A DNA stretch of 63,141 bases, the filler included. It is 8 parts of 8 records of this genome, joined end to end, with 100 filler letters (N's around TTAATTAATTAA, not from the genome) between each part and the next. Parts side by side here need not be neighbours in the genome. Positions count along the whole stretch, not along the records: positions 18,709 to 27,411 come from DRR723986_8857; 7 more parts are not named here. One strand, written 5' to 3'. Positions 18,800-27,411 of the stretch are shown in pieces. The number at the start of each line of letters is the position of its first letter. Within the stretch, counting starts at the first letter, position 1. The position numbers and the translations under genes are program-made. The notes below the pieces were generated by a model that saw nothing but the letters and a program-made list of their open reading frames with translations, did not search any database and had not been told where the DNA came from.

Positions 18800-20917
18800 T
18801 TATTCAATTACCAATTTCTTCAGGTACCTTTTATCCTGAGTTGATAATTCAAGATAATAGTTGCCCGACTCATATGAAGATATATCTATGTTAATTGAAT
18901 GTACGTTTAATTCTGATTCAGTATAAACTACACTTCCTTGTAAATTAAAAATACGAACCGAGTTTATTGATTCTGTTAAACTACTGATTGACAATTGATG
19001 TGATGCAGGATTAGGGAATACGCTTATATCCGCATCATTCATCTCTCCCAAACCCATACCCGTCTGTGCTTCAACAAATACACAGGCAGTTGTGTCTTTA
19101 CAAGATCCTATGGTGATTTCACAGGCATAGTTTCCATCTGCGGTTGGAATATAATCTTGATCAATTTCACCAGGTATAGCAGCATAACCATTATCGCAAT
19201 CTAACCATTGATAATTACCTCCGGCTTGAACCACAAATGCTACACCCTGAGTTTCAAAAATGTTCATATTCAAATTGGTAAGGATATGTAAATCAATGTG
19301 AATGATACTGTCAACACCCGGGCAAAGATTGCTGCCTATGGTATCTGTGAATACGTAATCACCAGGATTGGTATAAATATTTCCTGCTGGAGATGTGTAA
19401 TCATCACACGTGTAAACTGTTAAAGAATCTTCAGGATCTGAGATGGTGAGGTGAATAGTTAATAAACTGTCACAACCTGGGCAATTGGTACTTGGCAACA
19501 CATCTACAAAATCATAAACACCTTGACCCGTATAAAAACTTCCTCCAGGAGAAGTGTAATCACCACAAGTTTCTACGGCAATTGAATCTGTTAAATCTTG
19601 AGTCGTGTTCCATTCCCATAATTCGCCTCCGGCGACCATATCGTCTGCCATAAAAAATACAGAAGTTCCCATACCTACCATGTCAGAAGGTGCAGAACTT
19701 CCCGTGCCTGGGACAATGTCTCTGCCAAGCATCACCGTGTTGCCATCATATCTCCATAATTCTTTTCCTGCAACGCCATCATCAGCCACAAAATAAAGTT
19801 CATCACCAACGGTTGCAAACTTATCCGTGCCACCTCCAAAAATTGATTCAGTTGCTCCTGGATAAATGTCCCCACAGAAAGAAGTTGTTGTGCCGTCATA
19901 TTTCCACAATTCATTTCCAGTGGTTCCGTCATTGGCAGCAAAGTATAACACGTTGGTACCAGCAGTGATGTGGTTTGGATGTGCATTTCCTCCTCCAGCA
20001 AATATATCGTCTATCATCACGGCAGTTGTACCGTCATAGCTCCATAATTCATAGCCTGTGGCTGCATTGAATCCTCTAAAATAAACTGCCGAACCAAATT
20101 TGGTGAACTCCCAAGGTGTGAAATCACCTGTGCCTGTAGTATTGACATCTAAACAAGTAGCCGAAGTGCCATCATGCACCCACAATTCGTAGCCTTGAGT
20201 TCCGTTGGTTGCCCTAAAGCAAATTTTGGATCCAACTGCGGTTAATTCTCCCAAATCAGAACCATTAGATCCTGGGTATAAATCTTCTACAACGGCAGTT
20301 GTACCGTCATATTTCCACAATTCAAATCCTAATGTAGGATGAATTCCAGTAAAGTAAACGTAACCTCCAGCACCCGCATATTCGTCAGTGTTTGAACTGG
20401 CCGATCCTGGATTTAGATCTGCCACTAAAGAGGCGGTAGTTCCATCATATTTCCAGGGTTCATAACCTGAAACGCCATCATCTGCTGTAAAATAAAGTTC
20501 AGATCCTATCGCAGTCAAATAACTCAAAGATGATCCAAATGTTCCTGGATAAATATCTGCCACCAAAGAAACAGAAGTACCATCAAATTTGAACAATTCC
20601 ATCCCGGTTGCCGCCGTAAATGCTGTGAAATAAAGGTCAGACCCCATCACTGTAAAGTTGTTTGGCATTGAACCTCCTGCTCCCGGATTAATATCTGCCA
20701 CCAATGACGATACGCCATTTTCATACTTCCAAAGTTCAGGACCTGCAGAACTTCCTGTACATCTGAAGTAAAGAGCTCCGTTAAATTCAACCATGTTTAC
20801 AGGTAGTGAACCGTAAGAGCCTGGATATACATCACTCGCTAAATAGACGCAGTGTGGTTGTGCGTGGCCAATCGATCCCAATAAAAGTAAAACGATCAAG
20901 ACTGTGTTTCTCATCAT
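18800..20917 (-). CDS. ELWxxDGT-repeat beta-propeller protein with T9SS C-terminal sorting domain
   Basis: Signal peptide, about 9 ELW(K/S/R/V)YDG-type repeats, and a C-terminal VFPNPAS...SGNYYLEL...KKLVIE T9SS signal. Confidence 0.9.
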   Translation of the reverse strand: MMRNTVLIVLLLLGSIGHAQPHCVYLASDVYPGSYGSLPVNMVEFNGALYFRCTGSSAGPELWKYENGVSSLVADINPGAGGSMPNNFTVMGSDLYFTAFTAATGMELFKFDGTSVSLVADIYPGTFGSSLSYLTAIGSELYFTADDGVSGYEPWKYDGTTASLVADLNPGSASSNTDEYAGAGGYVYFTGIHPTLGFELWKYDGTTAVVEDLYPGSNGSDLGELTAVGSKICFRATNGTQGYELWVHDGTSATCLDVNTTGTGDFTPWEFTKFGSAVYFRGFNAATGYELWSYDGTTAVMIDDIFAGGGNAHPNHITAGTNVLYFAANDGTTGNELWKYDGTTTSFCGDIYPGATESIFGGGTDKFATVGDELYFVADDGVAGKELWRYDGNTVMLGRDIVPGTGSSAPSDMVGMGTSVFFMADDMVAGGELWEWNTTQDLTDSIAVETCGDYTSPGGSFYTGQGVYDFVDVLPSTNCPGCDSLLTIHLTISDPEDSLTVYTCDDYTSPAGNIYTNPGDYVFTDTIGSNLCPGVDSIIHIDLHILTNLNMNIFETQGVAFVVQAGGNYQWLDCDNGYAAIPGEIDQDYIPTADGNYACEITIGSCKDTTACVFVEAQTGMGLGEMNDADISVFPNPASHQLSISSLTESINSVRIFNLQGSVVYTESELNVHSINIDISSYESGNYYLELSTQDKRYLKKLVIE

Positions 20918-21055
20918 TTCTATTAAAGTCGCTTTTTTACGACAGAGTAGTTTTGTTAATTTCAGTTACAAATTACGGAAAAATAAGGCAATTGAGCCAA
21001 ATTTTAACAGTTGAATTATCACAGGGCTTTGGTGAAAAGTGATGAAAAAGCAACA

Positions 21056-21517
21056 TTAAAAATGCATTTTCATGCCTTCGTGACTGGCTTTAAAACCTAA
21101 ATCTTCATAGAATTTTATGGCTTCGGGTCGTTGTTTGTCAGTGGTCAATTGCAGTACATGGGCATTTCTTTCTTTGGCTCTTGAAATTGCCCATTCGAAA
21201 AGTTGTTTCCCAATTCCTTGGCCTCTGTAACTGTCTTTTATTCTTACCGCTTCAATTTGTGCTCTTATGCCGCCTTGATAGGTTAAGTATTGGATGAATG
21301 AAAGTTGCAATGTTCCAATCACTTCTTGATCATCATTTTCAACTACCATCAATTCTTGATTCGGATCAGCAGTAATGTTTTTAAAGGCCTTAATATATTC
21401 TGACGGCAGCGGGTCTTGAAAATTTTCGCGTTGAGCGCCCAGCTTGTCATTGGCAATCATCTCAATAATCGCTGGGACATCTTGTTCGGTTGCTTTTCTG
21501 AAATTGATCATGTTCAA
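21056..21517 (-). CDS. GNAT N-acetyltransferase
   Basis: RAQIEAVRI..YRGQGIG, LQLTTDKQR and FYEDLGF motifs. Confidence 0.9.
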   Translation of the reverse strand: MNMINFRKATEQDVPAIIEMIANDKLGAQRENFQDPLPSEYIKAFKNITADPNQELMVVENDDQEVIGTLQLSFIQYLTYQGGIRAQIEAVRIKDSYRGQGIGKQLFEWAISRAKERNAHVLQLTTDKQRPEAIKFYEDLGFKASHEGMKMHF

Positions 21518-21620
21518 AGAATTAAGTGTGAATTAACTTTCAGATTTAAATTGAAATTCAGGTGAGTGACCAAGTTCAAAACACCCTCAAATCGGCTTAT
21601 CTTAGTATTGTTGTTTATAG

Positions 21621-22331
21621 TTATTTTTTCCAAATGTGATAGAAGAATTCCATTGAGTCAACTGAATAGCCTAACTTCTCATATAATTTGCAAGCCGGGA
21701 TATTATCTCCTTGCGTAACAATCTGAATTTCTTCATATCCTTGGTCAAATGACCATTTTTCAGCGTTTTCAAAAAGTATTTTTCCAATGCCTTTTCCCCT
21801 ATAGTTTGAATCTACGGCTCCCATTCCTAGATCAGCTCTATTGTTTTTTTCTCCTATCGTAAGGTACCCGGCGATATCATCATTGTGATTATAGACAATT
21901 ACTTCATCTGCCATTTCTCTTTTAACAGATTTAATTATCCAAAGTTTATACAGTTCTTCATATTTATCGCGACCTATTTTTTTGTCTACATTGAATCTGG
22001 AGTAAACACCGCTTTGTATTGCCAGGTTGATTACTTTAGAACTTGGGAAATCATTGATATATGAACTAATTTGTGGGTGAGATTTTAACTCTGGATTAAT
22101 TTTTTTTACAAACGTAGTTTTCTTATCCACCATAGTAATTTCTAAGGTGTCAATGTCATCAATTTTTAATTCTTCAGCCGAAGAGTAGTAGGCAAGTTTA
22201 AATTTACCCTCATTCATTTTTAAGTCAACTGCTCTCAAATCTTCATTATTCTCAATTAATCCTTGAATTCTACATATATTGAAATCAAAAAAATCTGAGT
22301 CCCAATCGAGTTTTAATAAAGTCTGCTTCAT
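21621..22331 (-). CDS. WecD/RffC-like dTDP-4-amino-4,6-dideoxygalactose acetyltransferase (GNAT)
   Basis: LDWDSDFF, SGVYSRF..D, YRGKGIG and VTQGDNIPACKLYEKLGY motifs. Confidence 0.8.
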   Translation of the reverse strand: MKQTLLKLDWDSDFFDFNICRIQGLIENNEDLRAVDLKMNEGKFKLAYYSSAEELKIDDIDTLEITMVDKKTTFVKKINPELKSHPQISSYINDFPSSKVINLAIQSGVYSRFNVDKKIGRDKYEELYKLWIIKSVKREMADEVIVYNHNDDIAGYLTIGEKNNRADLGMGAVDSNYRGKGIGKILFENAEKWSFDQGYEEIQIVTQGDNIPACKLYEKLGYSVDSMEFFYHIWKK

Positions 22332-22419
22332 TTTCTACTATACTTTCTATTCTTAGTTCTGACTGGCTTAAATTTATCATTTTCCCTCACATTTTTATAT
22401 GTGGGGACTTACTCGCGTG

Positions 22420-22584
22420 GTTTGTGTAAAGTTAATCATTCGAGCGTAGCACATTTTTCTTATTCTTCACCAAAGACGAAACGGAGTGGAGTCGTGTTTT
22501 TGGATTGGCTTTTTAGCTAATCGTAAAACTTGAATCTGGACAAAGGAAGGGACGTGAGCTTTGCTTACTATGTTATGTGTAGTT
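22420..22584. mobile_element. attC-like element 1 (one outer core degraded)
   Basis: Left arm GTTTGTGTAAAGTT (22420-22433) and right arm CTTTGCTTACTATGTTATGTGTAGTT (to 22584) match the arms of element 2; internal hairpins present. Confidence 0.55.
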
Positions 22585-22589
22585 TTTCA

Positions 22590-23198
22590 CTACTCTAGAA
22601 CGACTATTCGGTGAACTTTTGGGTAAATTTTATTCTCTTCGGAGTATGTGTTGTCTTGCATCCATACGAAATGTTCGAAATCCTCTTTGTTGTAATCGAG
22701 CATGGTTCCGAAAGATTTGACATCAGGCCTTTCCTCTGAAATATCTAAGTTTCCTACTTTATTGAATGTTGAAAGGAATTCCTGTTTGTTTTCTTCACAC
22801 CAAACATGCATTCCCTCAACATATTTGTTTTTACCGATTCCAACCATTCTAATTGTTCCATTTATGAAAGATTCCAAACCACTTTGGTTTGTGTCAAGAT
22901 GCACTGGGGCCATTGCACAAGTAGAGGTGCCGAGCATCATGTAACACATGAAGCCATACTCAGGGAAAGAATCGAGAACAAAACAATCTCCAATAAAGAG
23001 AGTTCCTGCTGAGTCTTGTGTTGTTTCATTGTCTGCAAGATCTTCGAAAATAAGTGTGTCCTTATTCGTGAATTCAGGAGCAGAAACGTCTTCAATATAA
23101 CCTTCAATAAGGTCATTCAGATTTTGTTCCTTTTGCTCTGTCTGGCAAGAACTTATTAGAACCACTGCGAGTGAAAATATGTAGTAAATTTGCTTCAA
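22590..23198 (-). CDS. Hypothetical lipoprotein (cassette gene)
   Basis: A TTG start at 23198 gives MKQIYYIFSLAVVLISSC (signal peptide with lipobox). The ORF fills the space between two attC-like sites. Confidence 0.72.
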   Translation of the reverse strand: MKQIYYIFSLAVVLISSCQTEQKEQNLNDLIEGYIEDVSAPEFTNKDTLIFEDLADNETTQDSAGTLFIGDCFVLDSFPEYGFMCYMMLGTSTCAMAPVHLDTNQSGLESFINGTIRMVGIGKNKYVEGMHVWCEENKQEFLSTFNKVGNLDISEERPDVKSFGTMLDYNKEDFEHFVWMQDNTYSEENKIYPKVHRIVVLE

Positions 23199-23201
23199 GC
23201 T

Positions 23202-23286
23202 AATTGTGCATAACGTTTGAGTAAAGTTAGTGCTTGAGCACGAACCGCGCAAGCGGTAAACTTTACTTATTATGTTGTAGCCAGTT
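23202..23286. mobile_element. attC-like element 2 (complete)
   Basis: Imperfect inverted repeat CATAAC-GTTTGAGTAAAGTT ... AACTTTACTTATTAT-GTTGTAG enclosing two small hairpins (GTGCT-tg-AGCAC; ACCGC-gcaa-GCGGT). Confidence 0.72.
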
Positions 23287-23332
23287 TTTTCTTGATCAAT
23301 TTATAATGGTAGCATTGTGCTTAAATACTATT

Positions 23333-23406
23333 TGACAAAAAAATATTTGTCAAAAACTTTAACAAATAAAAATTTGTCAGTATATTTGACAAAAAAATAT
23401 TTGTTA
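23333..23406 (+). promoter_or_regulatory. Three tandem palindromic operators (TRACAAA-N6-TTTGTYA, 27-bp period) overlapping a Bacteroidota -7 promoter element
   Basis: Copies start at 23333, 23360 and 23387; TATATTTG at 23381-23388 matches TAnnTTTG. Confidence 0.75.
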
Positions 23407-23409
23407 GGC

Positions 23410-24600
23410 ATGAAAAATATAATTGGCCAAGTTGCACGGGGAAATGATTTTTTTCCAAGAGAGAGAGAAATAAAACGAATAGAAAAAACTATTAGGTCAG
23501 GTAGTCATATGCAATTGTCTGCTCCTAGAAGAGTTGGAAAAACATCTATTCTATACCACTTTTACGATAACGGCCTAGAGGGGTATGAATTCGTTTTTCT
23601 AAATACAGAAGCAGTGTATAAGGAAGAAGACTTCTTTAAAAGAATAGTTCAAGAGGTAATTAAATGCGAATGTATAGGTGGCAACAAAAAGGTTTCCTTA
23701 CAACTTAAAGAGAAAGGGAATGGATTGTTAAAACTGTTGAAGGCAGTAGATGTAGGTGGAGGAGGAGTTCAGCTAAATGATATTGAAGGAGTAGATTACT
23801 TTAAGGAGTTTCAAAATTTAATTAAGGGCTTACAAGTTGAAAAGAAAATCATCATCATGATAGATGAGTTCCCACACACACTTCTTAATATTTTAGGGAA
23901 GGATAATGAAGGTAAAGAAGATGTTATTAAGTTTTTACATTCAAATAGGGCTTTGCGACTGGACAAGGATATTTTAGGTAAGGTACAGTTTATTTACACC
24001 GGATCAATTGGGTTAAACACAACAGTTGCTGAGATTGATGCTACTCATTTGATAAATGATGTTCCACCGGTTCCGGTGAAACCCTTGTTGCCAGGAGAAG
24101 CAAAGGAGTTGATTGCTGAAATATTATTGGATATGGAAATTAACATTTCTGATGAAGTTCAAGAGTATATTTTTGAGAAGGTTGAATGGTTAATTCCTTT
24201 TTATATCAAATTAGTAATTAAAGAAATTGATGACTTAATGGACGAGCTTGTGGGCACAAATGACGTCACTCATGAGATTGTAGATAGAGCTGTCAATGAA
24301 GTCTTAGATTATAGAAACAACAACTATTTTGAGCATTATCATGGTAGGCTAAAAATGTATTACAGCGGTGATAAGTTACAAGCCGTTATTCAAATTTTGA
24401 ATTACATAGCACAGAATCAGGATACTGCGAAGGCTCCTTTATATGAAATGGTATTGAAGTTTGGTCAAGAAAATGAGTTCAAAAACATCATGCAAACACT
24501 AGAGTATGATGGTTATATCTACACAGATGAAACCGGAGGTGAAATTAATTTCAATTCACCAATTTTAAGGATGTGGTGGATAAAAAATATTTGTATTTAA
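23410..24600 (+). CDS. P-loop ATPase (archaeal-ATPase/AAA, STAND-like)
   Basis: DFFPRERE N-terminal motif, Walker A APRRVGKTS, Walker B IIIMIDEF, FIYTGS, and a C-terminal wHTH-like segment ending FNSPILRMWW. ATG 23410 preferred as start. Confidence 0.85.
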   Translation: MKNIIGQVARGNDFFPREREIKRIEKTIRSGSHMQLSAPRRVGKTSILYHFYDNGLEGYEFVFLNTEAVYKEEDFFKRIVQEVIKCECIGGNKKVSLQLKEKGNGLLKLLKAVDVGGGGVQLNDIEGVDYFKEFQNLIKGLQVEKKIIIMIDEFPHTLLNILGKDNEGKEDVIKFLHSNRALRLDKDILGKVQFIYTGSIGLNTTVAEIDATHLINDVPPVPVKPLLPGEAKELIAEILLDMEINISDEVQEYIFEKVEWLIPFYIKLVIKEIDDLMDELVGTNDVTHEIVDRAVNEVLDYRNNNYFEHYHGRLKMYYSGDKLQAVIQILNYIAQNQDTAKAPLYEMVLKFGQENEFKNIMQTLEYDGYIYTDETGGEINFNSPILRMWWIKNICI

Positions 24601-24613
24601 GATACTAGAAACA

Positions 24614-27310
24614 ATGAGTTTAAATTTATATAATCCAGCGAATAAGCGAAAGGACTCTCTAATAGAGGAGTTTGTAATCCGGAAAAAGGAATTCGCGACA
24701 ATTTCAAAGGACCTTAAAACTTTTGAGGGTAAATATCCTCCCCAACATTATTTGATAATCGGGCAACGGGGTGCAGGAAAGACCACCCTCATACAAAGAC
24801 TGATTTACTATATAGAGGATGATAAGAATCTATTTGAACATTTTCTACCTGTTACTCTTGATGAAGAACAGTATGGAATTAGTGAGCTCGCCAATTTATG
24901 GGAAAGAATTTCGGAGATTCTCGAGGATTATTATTCCATTGGAGATGTCTATTCTGAGGTCACTAGGGATATTGCAAAAAAGAACTATGAAGAGAAAGCA
25001 TTCAATGCTTTGCTAAGTCGGTTAAATAAAGAAGACAAGCACATAGTGTTATTCATAGATAACTTTGGAGATATCTTGGATAAATTTAATGAGAAGGAAA
25101 TAAAGCGTCTAAGAGAAATTCTGATGACTTGCCCGCGAATAAGGTTAATAGCCGCAACGCCGGTTCTGTTAGATCAAGTTTTAGATTATAAAAGCCCTTT
25201 ATTTGAGTTCTTTACTACAGTTCATTTAAAAGGATTAGATAATGAAGAGATTAAGACGCTATTATTGAAACTTTCGGAGTTGAATGGCTCAGAAAATAAA
25301 ATAAAGGCAATTCTAAAAAATCAATTTGATAGAATTGAAATATTACGGCAGTTCACAGGGGGGGTTACAAGAACTGTTGTACTACTTTATAATATATTTA
25401 TGGATAGCACAAATGGCAATGCCATTTCCGATCTGCAGTCAACACTAGATGCTCTTACTCCATTGTACAAACACAAAATGGACGATTTGAAAAAGCATCA
25501 ACAAAAAATACTGGATGTTGTAGCAAAAAGTTGGGATGCTGTGAGTGTTAAAGAAATTTCGGCTAGGACAAGGATTGAAAGTAAGATAATTTCTGCCCAG
25601 TTGCGGCAATTAGAGAAGAATCAGATTATTGAGAAGATTTCTACCTCCAAGAAAAATCATTTGTATCAAATAAAAGAACGCTTCTTTAACATTTGGTATT
25701 TAATGAGGTACGGACGTAGAAATGACAGAAACCGTGTAATTTGGCTAGTTAGATTCCTTGAGTCTTGGTATAATAAGGAAGAGTTGGAATTCAGAGTGGA
25801 ATCTTATGTGTCTGCGCTTGAAGCGGGTAAGTTTGAAATAGATTCAGTTGAGATTCTTGGAGAGGCTTATTTATCCTGTCATCACGTCTCATTATCACTA
25901 AAAAGCGAATTAATCAAACGAACGGCGATTCAATTTCCTAAATCAAATCTAGACGCTCGCAAAACGGTTTATGTTGAACTTTATAATAAGGCCGTAGATA
26001 GTCTAGAGAAGAATAATTTTAACGAAGCAATATCTTTTTTGAAACAAATACCGTTAAGAGACAAGGAAGATGACGTCAGGGTTTTTCTTGTAGAATTGTA
26101 TCAAGCAACCGAGGATTATGATAATTGTTTGGAGGAAGGGCTGGCTCTAGTTGATCAAGGGAATAATGATTCAACTATTTTATACGCTATTGGACGATCA
26201 TATTATTTTTTGCAGAATTATAAAGACGCGATTAAATACCTAAAAAGTGCTACAAAAGAAGGTGCTGTTAGAGCATTTGTTGATTTGGGAAATATTTATT
26301 CGACAACTGGACAGTTTTCCAAGGCGGAAAAGTTTTATTTAGAAGGTCTAAAATATGATGATTCAAAAGGTGGTGCCGCTCATTTTTTAGCACATCTATA
26401 TGAAAGAAAAGGAGATTTTCAAAAGTCAGAAAAATATCATTTGTTGGCTCTTGAATTAGGTGAGAAAAGGGTCAACTTGTGTCTGGCTTCATTATATCAT
26501 GACAACGGAGAGCTGGAACAAGCCGCTAAGTATTATGAAGAAGCAGTAAAAACTGAAGAGGATTCATTGATTGGATATGGTATTTTAAAAATTGAAATCG
26601 GAGAAGAAATGGAAGGTAGGGCGCTATTGACGAAAGCTGCAAAGTCTAATGATAATGAGATTATATTTGAATTAGCTCGAGCTTATGATTTTGCTCTCAA
26701 TGAGCCTAAAAATGCGATTAAGTATTACAAGAAATTACGAAAAGAATATATTGATATTGCTGAGCACAGAATTGCTCACATGTATGAGCGATTATCTGAC
26801 TTTCATAACGCAGAAAAATATTTTTTAAGAAGCTTTAAAAAGGTAGAAGATTATAACGTTTTGTTCTGCTTGGTATCACTTTACAAAGATTATAATGTAA
26901 AAAAGAAAGAGGCTTTGGAGTTAATAAATCTTGCAAAACAGAATATTGAATTTGAACCGCAAGATATCGTACTTTATTCAGAAGTATTAGCTTGGAATGG
27001 AGACCTTGAAACTTCGCATAAATGCATTGAAGATTTGATCTCAGAGTCTACTGAGTCTGAGTTGTCAAATGATCGAAATATGATAACTACTTTAACTTCT
27101 TACTTTGTTAGGCTTATTTCACTTGAATATTATCAAACAGCATCAAAGCTACTTGAACAAAAACAACTAAAAGAGATATTAAAACCAGTTTATTTTGCAC
27201 TTATGAAATACATGATGGAAGATTTTCCAGATGAGTATTTGAAAATGGGTAGTGAGTTAAAAGAAATTGTAGAAGATATTGTTTCGGAAATTGAGAACTT
27301 AAAGAAGTAA
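24614..27310 (+). CDS. P-loop ATPase-winged-HTH-TPR/SEL1 repeat protein (STAND-like)
   Basis: Walker A GQRGAGKTT, Walker B VLFIDNF, wHTH (QQKILDVVA...VKEISARTRIESKIISAQLRQLEK), and many TPR-like repeats in the C-terminal half. Confidence 0.85.
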   Translation: MSLNLYNPANKRKDSLIEEFVIRKKEFATISKDLKTFEGKYPPQHYLIIGQRGAGKTTLIQRLIYYIEDDKNLFEHFLPVTLDEEQYGISELANLWERISEILEDYYSIGDVYSEVTRDIAKKNYEEKAFNALLSRLNKEDKHIVLFIDNFGDILDKFNEKEIKRLREILMTCPRIRLIAATPVLLDQVLDYKSPLFEFFTTVHLKGLDNEEIKTLLLKLSELNGSENKIKAILKNQFDRIEILRQFTGGVTRTVVLLYNIFMDSTNGNAISDLQSTLDALTPLYKHKMDDLKKHQQKILDVVAKSWDAVSVKEISARTRIESKIISAQLRQLEKNQIIEKISTSKKNHLYQIKERFFNIWYLMRYGRRNDRNRVIWLVRFLESWYNKEELEFRVESYVSALEAGKFEIDSVEILGEAYLSCHHVSLSLKSELIKRTAIQFPKSNLDARKTVYVELYNKAVDSLEKNNFNEAISFLKQIPLRDKEDDVRVFLVELYQATEDYDNCLEEGLALVDQGNNDSTILYAIGRSYYFLQNYKDAIKYLKSATKEGAVRAFVDLGNIYSTTGQFSKAEKFYLEGLKYDDSKGGAAHFLAHLYERKGDFQKSEKYHLLALELGEKRVNLCLASLYHDNGELEQAAKYYEEAVKTEEDSLIGYGILKIEIGEEMEGRALLTKAAKSNDNEIIFELARAYDFALNEPKNAIKYYKKLRKEYIDIAEHRIAHMYERLSDFHNAEKYFLRSFKKVEDYNVLFCLVSLYKDYNVKKKEALELINLAKQNIEFEPQDIVLYSEVLAWNGDLETSHKCIEDLISESTESELSNDRNMITTLTSYFVRLISLEYYQTASKLLEQKQLKEILKPVYFALMKYMMEDFPDEYLKMGSELKEIVEDIVSEIENLKK

Positions 27311-27317
27311 ACCATGT

Positions 27318-27411
27318 AATTGGCTACAACGTTCGAGTAAATATAATGCTTTCGCTGAAGCTTCATCACAGGCGCTAGGTGTTTTTAGATGCCGCCGCGA
27401 GTGCGTTGGCC
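27318..27411. mobile_element. attC-like element 3 (truncated by contig end)
   Basis: AATTGGCTACAAC-GTTCGAGTAAA. The arm matches element 2, and the core is the reverse complement of 23274-23286. Confidence 0.68.

Follow-up and report, generated by a model that had tools for sequence, protein, structure and literature searches.

Background

An integron is defined by the tyrosine recombinase IntI together with its extra domain, which is also what genome surveys look for. Ghaly et al. 2022 (PMC9668308) treat the additional domain as defining and place archaeal attI sites immediately downstream of intI, and extrahelical bases have been described as what chiefly determines which strand is chosen (Bouvier et al. 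2009, PMC2727003). Recombinases without intI_Cterm were found only beside fewer than three attC sites and were concluded not to be IntI (Cury et al. 2016, PMC4889954), and for Bacteroidetes the account given with IntegronFinder 2.0 mentions only In0 elements in 2016 and names one complete integron, that of Salinibacter ruber (PMC9024848). The integration of CTX-phi by XerCD has been presented as the only reaction resembling cassette recombination, and a Xer-like ancestor has been the subject of speculation (Escudero et al. 2016, PMC4792948). Here we analyse a window of 63,141 nt (the whole stretch of DNA under study, consisting of eight short contigs with N/TTAATTAATTAA spacers between them), in which positions 22417-27411 carry a cassette array with attC-like hairpin sites.

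We read this array as belonging to a Crocinitomicaceae-type bacterium (Bacteroidota, Flavobacteriales) and as the distal part of an integron-like array in which hairpin sites would be served by a dedicated tyrosine recombinase; to this reading we give a probability of roughly 0.8. The array feature itself is real, and its cassette structure, polarity and likely single-strand folding are integron-like as judged from sequence comparison. On the minus strand of the window the order would be truncated site E3, cassette A with site E2, cassette B with inactivated site E1, and ordinary chromosome. The plus strand is predicted to fold into a hairpin consisting of a 13-bp R stem (in the excised circle), an unpaired spacer and an L stem, and the folded site would recombine with a hairpin attI-like site through the dedicated recombinase. 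In relatives this enzyme lies at the array head, co-oriented with the array, and appears to be Xer/IntI-related, with the catalytic residues and an extra N-terminal domain and without the IntI-specific domain. A full-text literature search, with supplementary lists of attC-site clusters without an integron-integrase (CALINs) outside its scope, met with no account, for Flavobacteriales, of attC-type arrays that come with a Xer-like recombinase.

Sites of the array in the window

A first-pass annotation of this stretch had described three related elements with common arms. The elements lie where it placed them (Table 1) and the common arms are real. As sites they differ in state: E2 is intact, whereas E1 is a conserved terminal element with a dead R' core and E3, a long-class site, is present in its 3' part only. 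The cores of E2 (AAC at 23212-23214 and GTT at 23274-23276) span 65 nt core to core, with 10-nt R-box flanks on each side. Against covariance model R1, which was built from 101 related sites of the same family, E2 scores 47.5 bits (E 3e-9 and 9e-11). It is an exact duplicate of a collected site, and its ends match the first site after the recombinase gene of the related genome G003 (L058:11133-11197). In the predicted fold an AAC/GTT stem is followed by a spacer, the 9-bp L stem and a pair of small hairpins; this fold is slightly better on the plus strand (-15.2 kcal/mol, z -2.7) than on the minus strand (-13.0 kcal/mol, z -1.9).

The outer cores pair across the cargo, as had been proposed in the first pass. 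GTTGTAGCCA in E2 (23274-23283) is the exact reverse complement of TGGCTACAAC at E3 (27321-27330), and this 10-nt inverted repeat flanks cassette A, the boundary rule being taken over from relatives. GTTATGTGTAGTT (22572-22584) pairs with AATTGTGCATAAC (23202-23214) through Watson-Crick and G:T pairs on the plus strand, and three of these pairs turn into A.C mismatches on the opposite strand. Paired by eye, the E2 R' flank and the E1 R'' flank that bound cassette B form four Watson-Crick and three G.T pairs on the plus strand. Both pairings were confirmed, and relatives follow the same rule (see below).

On the top strand of the array (window minus) E3 reads ...TTTACTCGAAC GTT GTAGCCA ATT, its R' GTT being the complement of 27328-27330. 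It aligns best as a member of the long-class family, with GGCCA.CGCAC and the 3' arm in common, and, being truncated, obtains only a trivial local match to the covariance model. The 5' half of E1 is normal (AAC ATAGTA AGCAAAGCTCACGTCC; 22.7 bits against R1), its interior is AT-richer, and its 3' arm TAACTTTACACAAAC is followed by CAC in place of GTT, which leaves the R' core dead; the 3' half is unmatched by the model. E1 is homologous over its full length to the last element of the main array of genome G007 (69% identity over 173 nt, or ~78% over aligned positions by a by-eye estimate), which ends CAAAC CCA, likewise in place of GTT. In both elements a normal 5' half is combined with an AT-richer interior and mutually unmatched L arms, and the DNA beyond is unrelated. 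E1 is therefore taken as a conserved, inactivated array terminus, which places the acetyltransferase (GNAT) and type IX secretion system (T9SS) genes next to it outside the array. Neither E1 nor E3 gave a convincing fold when folded alone, and we attribute this to the inactivation of the one and the truncation of the other.

This terminal element with a dead R' occurs at ~14113-14275 of L110 in G007 and at 22417-22584 of the window, the recombinases being only ~68% identical between the genomes compared; partial matches to it are present at G002:C48:413-455, G002:C63:1908-1949 and G092:C15:242479-242520.

The contig thus holds one intact site (E2), one truncated site (E3), one decayed site (E1) and two bounded cassettes. 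As seen it is a CALIN-like fragment, whose membership among CALINs hinges on accepting the sites as attC. As the first pass had reported for an integrase, no recombinase is present among the six open reading frames (ORFs) of the contig scanned against Pfam.

The site family in related genomes

A degenerate two-arm pattern scanned over one genome per species gave 19 matches, about the number expected by chance on a hand estimate. Two of them are true copies, near-identical to E2 in the interior and with other bases in the outer cores, and both belong to Crocinitomicaceae metagenome-assembled genomes (L006 in G002 and L017 in G003). In G003, same-strand clusters spread over many small contigs contain dozens of copies. 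When no more than one mismatch was allowed per arm, a first set of 52 sites (16 sources) and then a larger one of 105 (102 distinct; 20 sources) were gathered, so that the further copies which the first-pass annotation led one to expect do exist. Site sizes are mainly ~65, 160 and 183 nt, with some intermediate. On the strand equivalent to window minus, the layout is 7 nt, AAC, AYARTA, L'' ... L', CAAAC, GTT and 7 nt, each site forming an imperfect palindrome in which two matching 9-bp L arms enclose a variable interior and are set off from the cores by spacers of 6 nt on the AAC side and 5 nt (CAAAC) on the GTT side.

Conservation of the stem as structure is evident from the alignment. Over 101 distinct sites, the nine pairs of the L stem plus three core pairs are 95.5% paired, and sliding the partner column by one lowers pairing to 38-65%. 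The L stem has 137 cells changed on both sides, compared with 50 +/- 8 in shuffles (0 of 500 reach the observed value), and two-sided changes affect five of its pairs. Given that the covarying positions were free in the search pattern, this covariation was not built in.

Model R1 recovers 126 sites in G007, 86 in G092, 64 in G003 and 14 in G002. Those of G007 comprise the main array and a few further same-strand clusters without a recombinase; CALIN-like secondary clusters were observed on G007:C1 at ~1.771-1.780 Mb (+), 2.144-2.158 Mb (-), 2.444-2.452 Mb (+) and 0.925 Mb. The model barely reaches the diverged sites near recombinases of 54-60% identity, with one match each at L117 and L128.

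Cassette structure, polarity and strand

Neighbouring sites are linked by their flanks. The 7 nt that follow GTT are complementary to the 7 nt ahead of the next AAC at six or more positions in 31 of 37 neighbour pairs (22 of them exactly), while the same complementarity within a site is seen in 1 of 37 and between random pairs in 6.4%. In a set of 73 neighbour pairs, the stem that a circularised cassette would form extends ten positions past the core. Position 8 of this R stem is C.A on the top strand and hence G.T on the other strand (window plus) in all 73 pairs, position 9 is Watson-Crick in 73/73 and position 10 in 65/73; positions 8-10 played no part in selecting the pairs.

The unit that moves can be read from a 471-bp cassette present in seven copies in G092, each behind a different upstream site. 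The copies start directly after ...CAAACGTT, which belongs once to the attI-like site and otherwise to sites with three different L' arms, and every copy ends in the same 97-nt-type site, beyond which the DNA differs. What moves is therefore the cargo together with its downstream site, with exchange within CAAACG/TT (the slash marks the crossover point); within the shared 8-mer the exact crossover base is not resolvable.

The longest ORF is co-oriented with the array in 57 of the 73 cassettes, opposed in 14 and absent in two, and cargo length has a median of 581 nt (range 160-2387). The recombinase, the attI-like site and these 57 ORFs all lie on the strand equal to window minus. Use of G as a marker makes the CAAAC-GTT end R' (after PMC2727003), in agreement with the cassette polarity.

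These patterns bear on several proposals made for the window from its own letters. Mobile cassettes at hairpin sites gain support from the cross-cargo complementarity and from the constant downstream site of the 471-bp cassette. A minus-oriented array fits the common strand of recombinase, attI-like site and most cassette ORFs, and the choice of the plus strand as the folded one is favoured by the invariant wobble at R-stem position 8.

Recombinase and attI-like site at the array head

In G003 the integron-integrase model finds its best match 1.8 kb away from an E2-like site. The gene encodes 379 aa and is followed directly by a small hairpin and then by ...GAAC GTT GTGTGTA ATT, where GTGTGTA is the flank that pairs with TACACAC AAC in the first site. 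In this array cassette 1 encodes a PKD/T9SS protein and cassette 2 a DUF4365 protein; the latter (L058 11227-12252) matches a PADLOC model of the Aga restriction-endonuclease type (6e-12), which suggests defence cargo. The order of gene, attI-like site and array is the same in G003, G007, G092 and G034. At least 34 sites over 34 kb follow directly after the tyrosine recombinase gene in G007 (on a 4.37-Mb contig) and at least 24 sites in 16 kb in G092, while G034 has two sites before its contig ends, G102 (2.9-Mb contig) has one cassette after the recombinase, and G156 and G158 have diverged, shorter sites in chains of three links. A hairpin and then GTT were found by eye 3' of the stop codon in 25 of 27 orthologue loci, the attI-like layout being a hairpin (the stem of which varies with compensation), 2-5 nt, GTT, 7 nt and AT(T). 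At 13 of these 27 loci no more than 851 nt of contig remain past the stop codon, as expected if repeats break assembly.

The enzyme is a tyrosine recombinase (Pfam Phage_integrase, 2e-38) with R236, K261, H325, R328 and Y360 invariant in 42 family sequences and H351 present in at least 90%. Alignment with VchIntIA (2a3v) places residues 117-278 on 15-177 and residues 301-375 on 243-317, so that 22 residues (279-300) face VchIntIA 178-242, the 65-aa IntI-specific region. The IntI model TIGR02249 is matched in two pieces that skip model positions ~180-240, with 204 bits vs a cut-off of 265, whereas the XerA-type model of NCBIfam is passed (228.7 bits vs 220) and XerA structures (4a8e, 5hxy) align end to end, gap-free in this region. 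A tblastn match to IntI1 aligns 270 query residues over 313 codons. No six-frame TIGR02249 match above the cut-off was found in G002, G003, G007, G034, G092 or G102, and in each of these six genomes the best or joint-best match is the array recombinase or its closest paralogue. An AlphaFold model (pLDDT 84) retrieves VchIntIA (E 9e-17, 28-29% identity) and XerA (E 2e-16, 31-32%) about equally well with Foldseek. The divergent Bacteroidota system suspected in the first pass is thus supported by a recombinase that is not an IntI. We infer that this array-head enzyme catalyses the exchange.

The extra N-terminal domain (~105 aa) is modelled as a beta-beta-alpha-beta-beta-alpha-beta fold over residues 6-78 and matched no Pfam family. 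Its fold matches are middling (UvsW, Z 7.0; XPB, Z 6.4 and 6.2; XPB first in Foldseek, E 0.15-0.24), in a range common for a fold search, and the likeness is only a lead. These weak best matches are to the DNA-structure-sensing N-terminal domains of XPB and UvsW, and the added domain may supply structure recognition.

Among the genomes sampled, 35 of 251 in the family (37 places, E 2e-115 or better) and 38 of 401 in the order carry a full-length orthologue. Databases hold more than 7000 relatives, mostly on very short contigs and named 'site-specific tyrosine recombinase/integron integrase' or 'XerD'. Many matches of the family-level search cover only the catalytic part (query ~105 on), suggesting that short paralogues are common there. 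The closest relative in G002 (L059 2537-3370, G002:C35; 277 aa, 46% identity) was rejected as an array recombinase: it has no N-terminal domain and is followed by tRNA genes, not by an array. A homologue on plasmid 4 of Persicobacter sp. JZB09 (L133 12001-13128) was likewise set aside as an array head, no AAC/GTT cassette chain having been found downstream. This Cytophagales protein, encoded on a 395-kb plasmid, is full-length including the N-terminal domain (43% identity), and a hairpin follows its stop codon.

Cassettes, cargo and surroundings of the array

Features of the contig are collected in Table 1. Cassette A exceeds all 73 cassettes measured in relatives, and both of its cargo genes are antisense to the array. 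The 898-aa protein matches TPR families at E 1e-19 to 1e-15 and AAA_16 at 1.2e-7. The second ORF starts mechanically at a GTG (23317; 427 aa), the ATG start in Table 1 having been read by eye, and its ATPase_2 match (7.3e-7) falls under the curated Pfam cut-off. A defence assignment of cassette A by PADLOC was considered and rejected as not convincing, with weak matches alone for the 898-aa protein (mad8, 1.1e-7) and none for the second. The AT-rich palindromic region 5' of both genes is possibly cassette A's own promoter or operator. In cassette B, where the cargo ORF spans 220 codons mechanically, the product is probably a lipoprotein, its N-terminus KQIYYIFSLAVVLISSC being signal-like; both start codon and lipobox were read by eye. 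The cassette B protein has no Pfam family and no PADLOC match. A check for homologues of the enclosed genes in other neighbourhoods had been suggested; for the 898-aa and cassette B proteins none was found in five related genomes (G003, G007, G092, G002 and G034).

Table 1. Annotated features of the contig that carries the array, in window coordinates.
Feature	Position	Strand	Basis and remarks
T9SS-sorted repeat protein	18800-20917	-	Pfam Por_Secre_tail 9e-14; outside array
GNAT acetyltransferase	21056-21517	-	Pfam Acetyltransf_1; outside array
GNAT acetyltransferase	21621-22331	-	Pfam Acetyltransf_1; outside array
E1, array-terminal element	22417/22420-22584	-	Homology to G007 terminal element
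Cassette B, last cassette of the array (cargo + terminal element E1)	22419-23213	-	795 bp
Cassette B cargo gene, co-oriented with array, ~201 aa from TTG 23196-23194	22590-23196	-	Translation
E2, intact short-class attC-like site	23202-23286	-	Covariance model R1, 47.5 bits
Cassette A (cargo + downstream site E2)	23214-27329	-	4116 bp, delimited by G/TT crossover points
AT-rich inverted and direct repeats, TTTGTCAAAAA-type	23335-23404	.	Repeat search: I3 (33-nt arms, 73% complementary), families D5/D8
Cargo gene, weak ATPase_2/AAA-like, 396 aa from in-frame ATG at 23410	23410-24600	+	ORF, Pfam
Cargo gene, 898 aa, AAA_16/STAND-type NTPase with TPR repeats	24614-27310	+	Pfam
E3, 3' part (~90 nt) of long-class attC-like site, cut by contig end	27318-27411	-	Sequence, alignment

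The contig (18709-27411) is 8703 bp long with a GC content of 0.36, and the remaining contigs have 0.49-0.68. The source bin is probably mixed, given a GC range of 0.36-0.68 across eight contigs and a low-GC contig of Bacteroidota type among high-GC ones. The closest compared genome, G001, has 21% of sampled words in common with the window. The covariance model scan revealed no attC-like site among the flank genes (18800-22331) or beyond E1, and a relative's contig in sequencing runs X1/X2 covers 21000-22421 and stops at E1. The two GNAT genes match Acetyltransf_1 at 9.5e-20 and 2e-17, and the T9SS-sorted gene contains approximately seven tandem repeats of 138 nt (46 codons) at 19600-20730 of the window (repeat families D1-D4). 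Beyond what the first pass had described, then, relatives carry their own non-IntI recombinase, E1 is an inactivated terminus and the array does not include the GNAT and T9SS genes.

Interpretation and alternative explanations

It is important to note that several points weigh against reading the locus as the end of an integron-like array with its own recombinase. Single-stranded folding of the window plus strand is deduced from covariation and wobble asymmetry, and the collection of sites, which relied on a regular expression for the two arms, leans towards conserved copies. Mobility of the window cargo is inferred from site logic alone, there being no homologues in five related genomes, and cassette B pairs only via three wobbles and ends in a dead core. 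Two of the 27 orthologue loci have no attI-like site, and at 11 other orthologue loci (G212, G032, G046, G243, G025, G084, G215, G247, G182, G068 and G020) stem-based and chain finders returned no chain of at least three links, several of these loci having little downstream sequence. Finally, the excised-circle junction that had been suggested as a check was not recovered, nor was an empty site, from sequencing runs X1-X3, which were available as contigs with 0.05-0.13 of sampled words and the window cargo uncovered. Joints 22558-22591 / 27325-27382 in the runs were considered as circle junctions and rejected, being other sites with common arms whose sides measure 23-41 nt. A cargo 30-mer and an E2 30-mer had no match in metagenome contigs.

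Exchange of real cassettes on double-stranded palindromes, in the manner of Xer/dif or pdif modules and without single-strand folding, is in our judgement unlikely. The recombinase aligns with XerA from end to end and passes the XerA-type cut-off, and stems without extrahelical bases mimic duplex DNA, as this explanation would have it; yet the L arms covary, so that no single protein-read sequence is kept, the mismatch found without exception at position 8 of the R stem is a wobble on just one of the strands, and the sites all point in the same direction along the array, which differs from the alternation of pdif modules. We find it very improbable that the window holds an ordinary integron remnant (CALIN), with a canonical IntI elsewhere or lost and the Xer-like gene a bystander. 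AAC/GTT cores, the putative unpaired spacer, cassette sizes and the polarity of cargo plus downstream site are indeed as in integrons, the 3' arm CAAAC GTTA is the same as in the aacA4 attC of a class 1 integron, and integrase-less CALINs are common (PMC4889954, PMC9024848). Such a remnant is, however, at odds with the want of any TIGR02249 match above cut-off in six genomes that include the 4.37-Mb and 2.9-Mb single contigs, and with the matching attI-like site that comes after the Xer-like gene and pairs through its flank with the first cassette; it would also have IntI read sites without extrahelical bases (compare PMC2727003).

That the elements are intergenic repeats of the repetitive extragenic palindrome (REP), bacterial interspersed mosaic element (BIME), miniature inverted-repeat transposable element or terminator type, with an incidental cassette pattern, is hardly credible and already contradicted. 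They are intergenic, palindromic and repeated, and E2 lies just 3' of a gene, like a terminator. Against this stand the unique 7-nt flanks that complement each other across each cargo, an identical cassette with its site at seven places, clustered same-strand arrays that start at one recombinase gene, and the lack of a T-run past the stem. The sites, moreover, are 65-185 nt long and form long same-strand arrays at few loci, not singly dispersed as REP/BIME elements. The first pass had named REP elements and plain terminators as what would overturn its proposal; the elements are very unlikely to be either.

Returning to the integron-like array with a dedicated recombinase, a wider interpretation has, in our estimate, about even odds: that Flavobacteriales harbour a second integron lineage with arrays of superintegron size, having a Xer-like recombinase without I2 (never had or replaced), bulge-free attC and hairpin attI, or else an independent invention of cassette capture. 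If true, a large stock of cassettes in aquatic Flavobacteriales, in arrays of tens to more than a hundred headed by a recombinase without the IntI-specific domain, would escape current screens, cassette-type recombination would need neither I2 nor extrahelical bases, and an origin of integrons from Xer-like enzymes acting on folded DNA could be tested on a natural system with simple assays.

Comparison with known systems

Judged on sequence, the sites and the recombinase lack two defining features of integrons, the IntI domain and the extrahelical bases, and the extended core and attI deviate as well. The aacA4 attC of a class 1 integron reads GCCTAAC CCTTC CATCGAGGGG...CCCCTCATG TCAAAC GTTAAAC. 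In this single canonical example a spacer of 5 stands opposite one of 6 and L'' carries an extra base, whereas in the present sites 6 (AYARTA) stand opposite 5 (CAAAC) with no extra base. By eye, the 9-bp L stem is free of unpaired bases in ~99 of 101 aligned sites. The sequence GTTRRRY is matched by 13 of 104 sites, the consensus being GTT A (G/T) (G/C) N. The first-pass description of the sites as atypical is thereby upheld.

Vibrio-type superintegrons, with their VCR-like attC sites, resemble the present arrays in many respects: long same-strand arrays of short cassettes, species-typical similar sites, AAC/GTT cores, a putative unpaired spacer, an L stem kept as structure, a large, branched and variable interior, cargo with its downstream site, crossover at G/TT and extra integrase-less clusters. 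They differ in that the recombinase described here has no IntI additional domain and has a new N-terminal domain, and in that its sites are bulge-free, with a 6/5 spacer, few GTTRRRY cores and a hairpin attI-like site right after the stop codon. Treponema-type integrons have the same co-orientation of intI and cassettes. The succession of recombinase, attI and cassettes on one strand is likewise found in 'reverse' and archaeal integrons, which keep the IntI-specific domain (PMC9668308) that is missing here.

Among systems that rely on Xer, the pdif modules of Acinetobacter are discrete gene modules bounded by Xer-type sites of ~28 bp in alternating orientation; the present sites, in contrast, are hairpins of 65-185 nt in one orientation with cassette-specific flanks. 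CTX-phi and integrative mobile elements exploiting Xer (IMEX) share with the present system a Xer-type enzyme without an I2-like domain and a folded, bulge-free single-stranded hairpin that mimics duplex DNA (PMC4792948). CTX-phi borrows the host XerCD to insert one phage genome at dif, while in the present system a dedicated recombinase heads tens of cassettes. If the wider interpretation given above is correct, these arrays would be a living example of the intermediate between Xer and integrons that Escudero et al. 2016 (PMC4792948) only imagined, or, alternatively, an independent invention.

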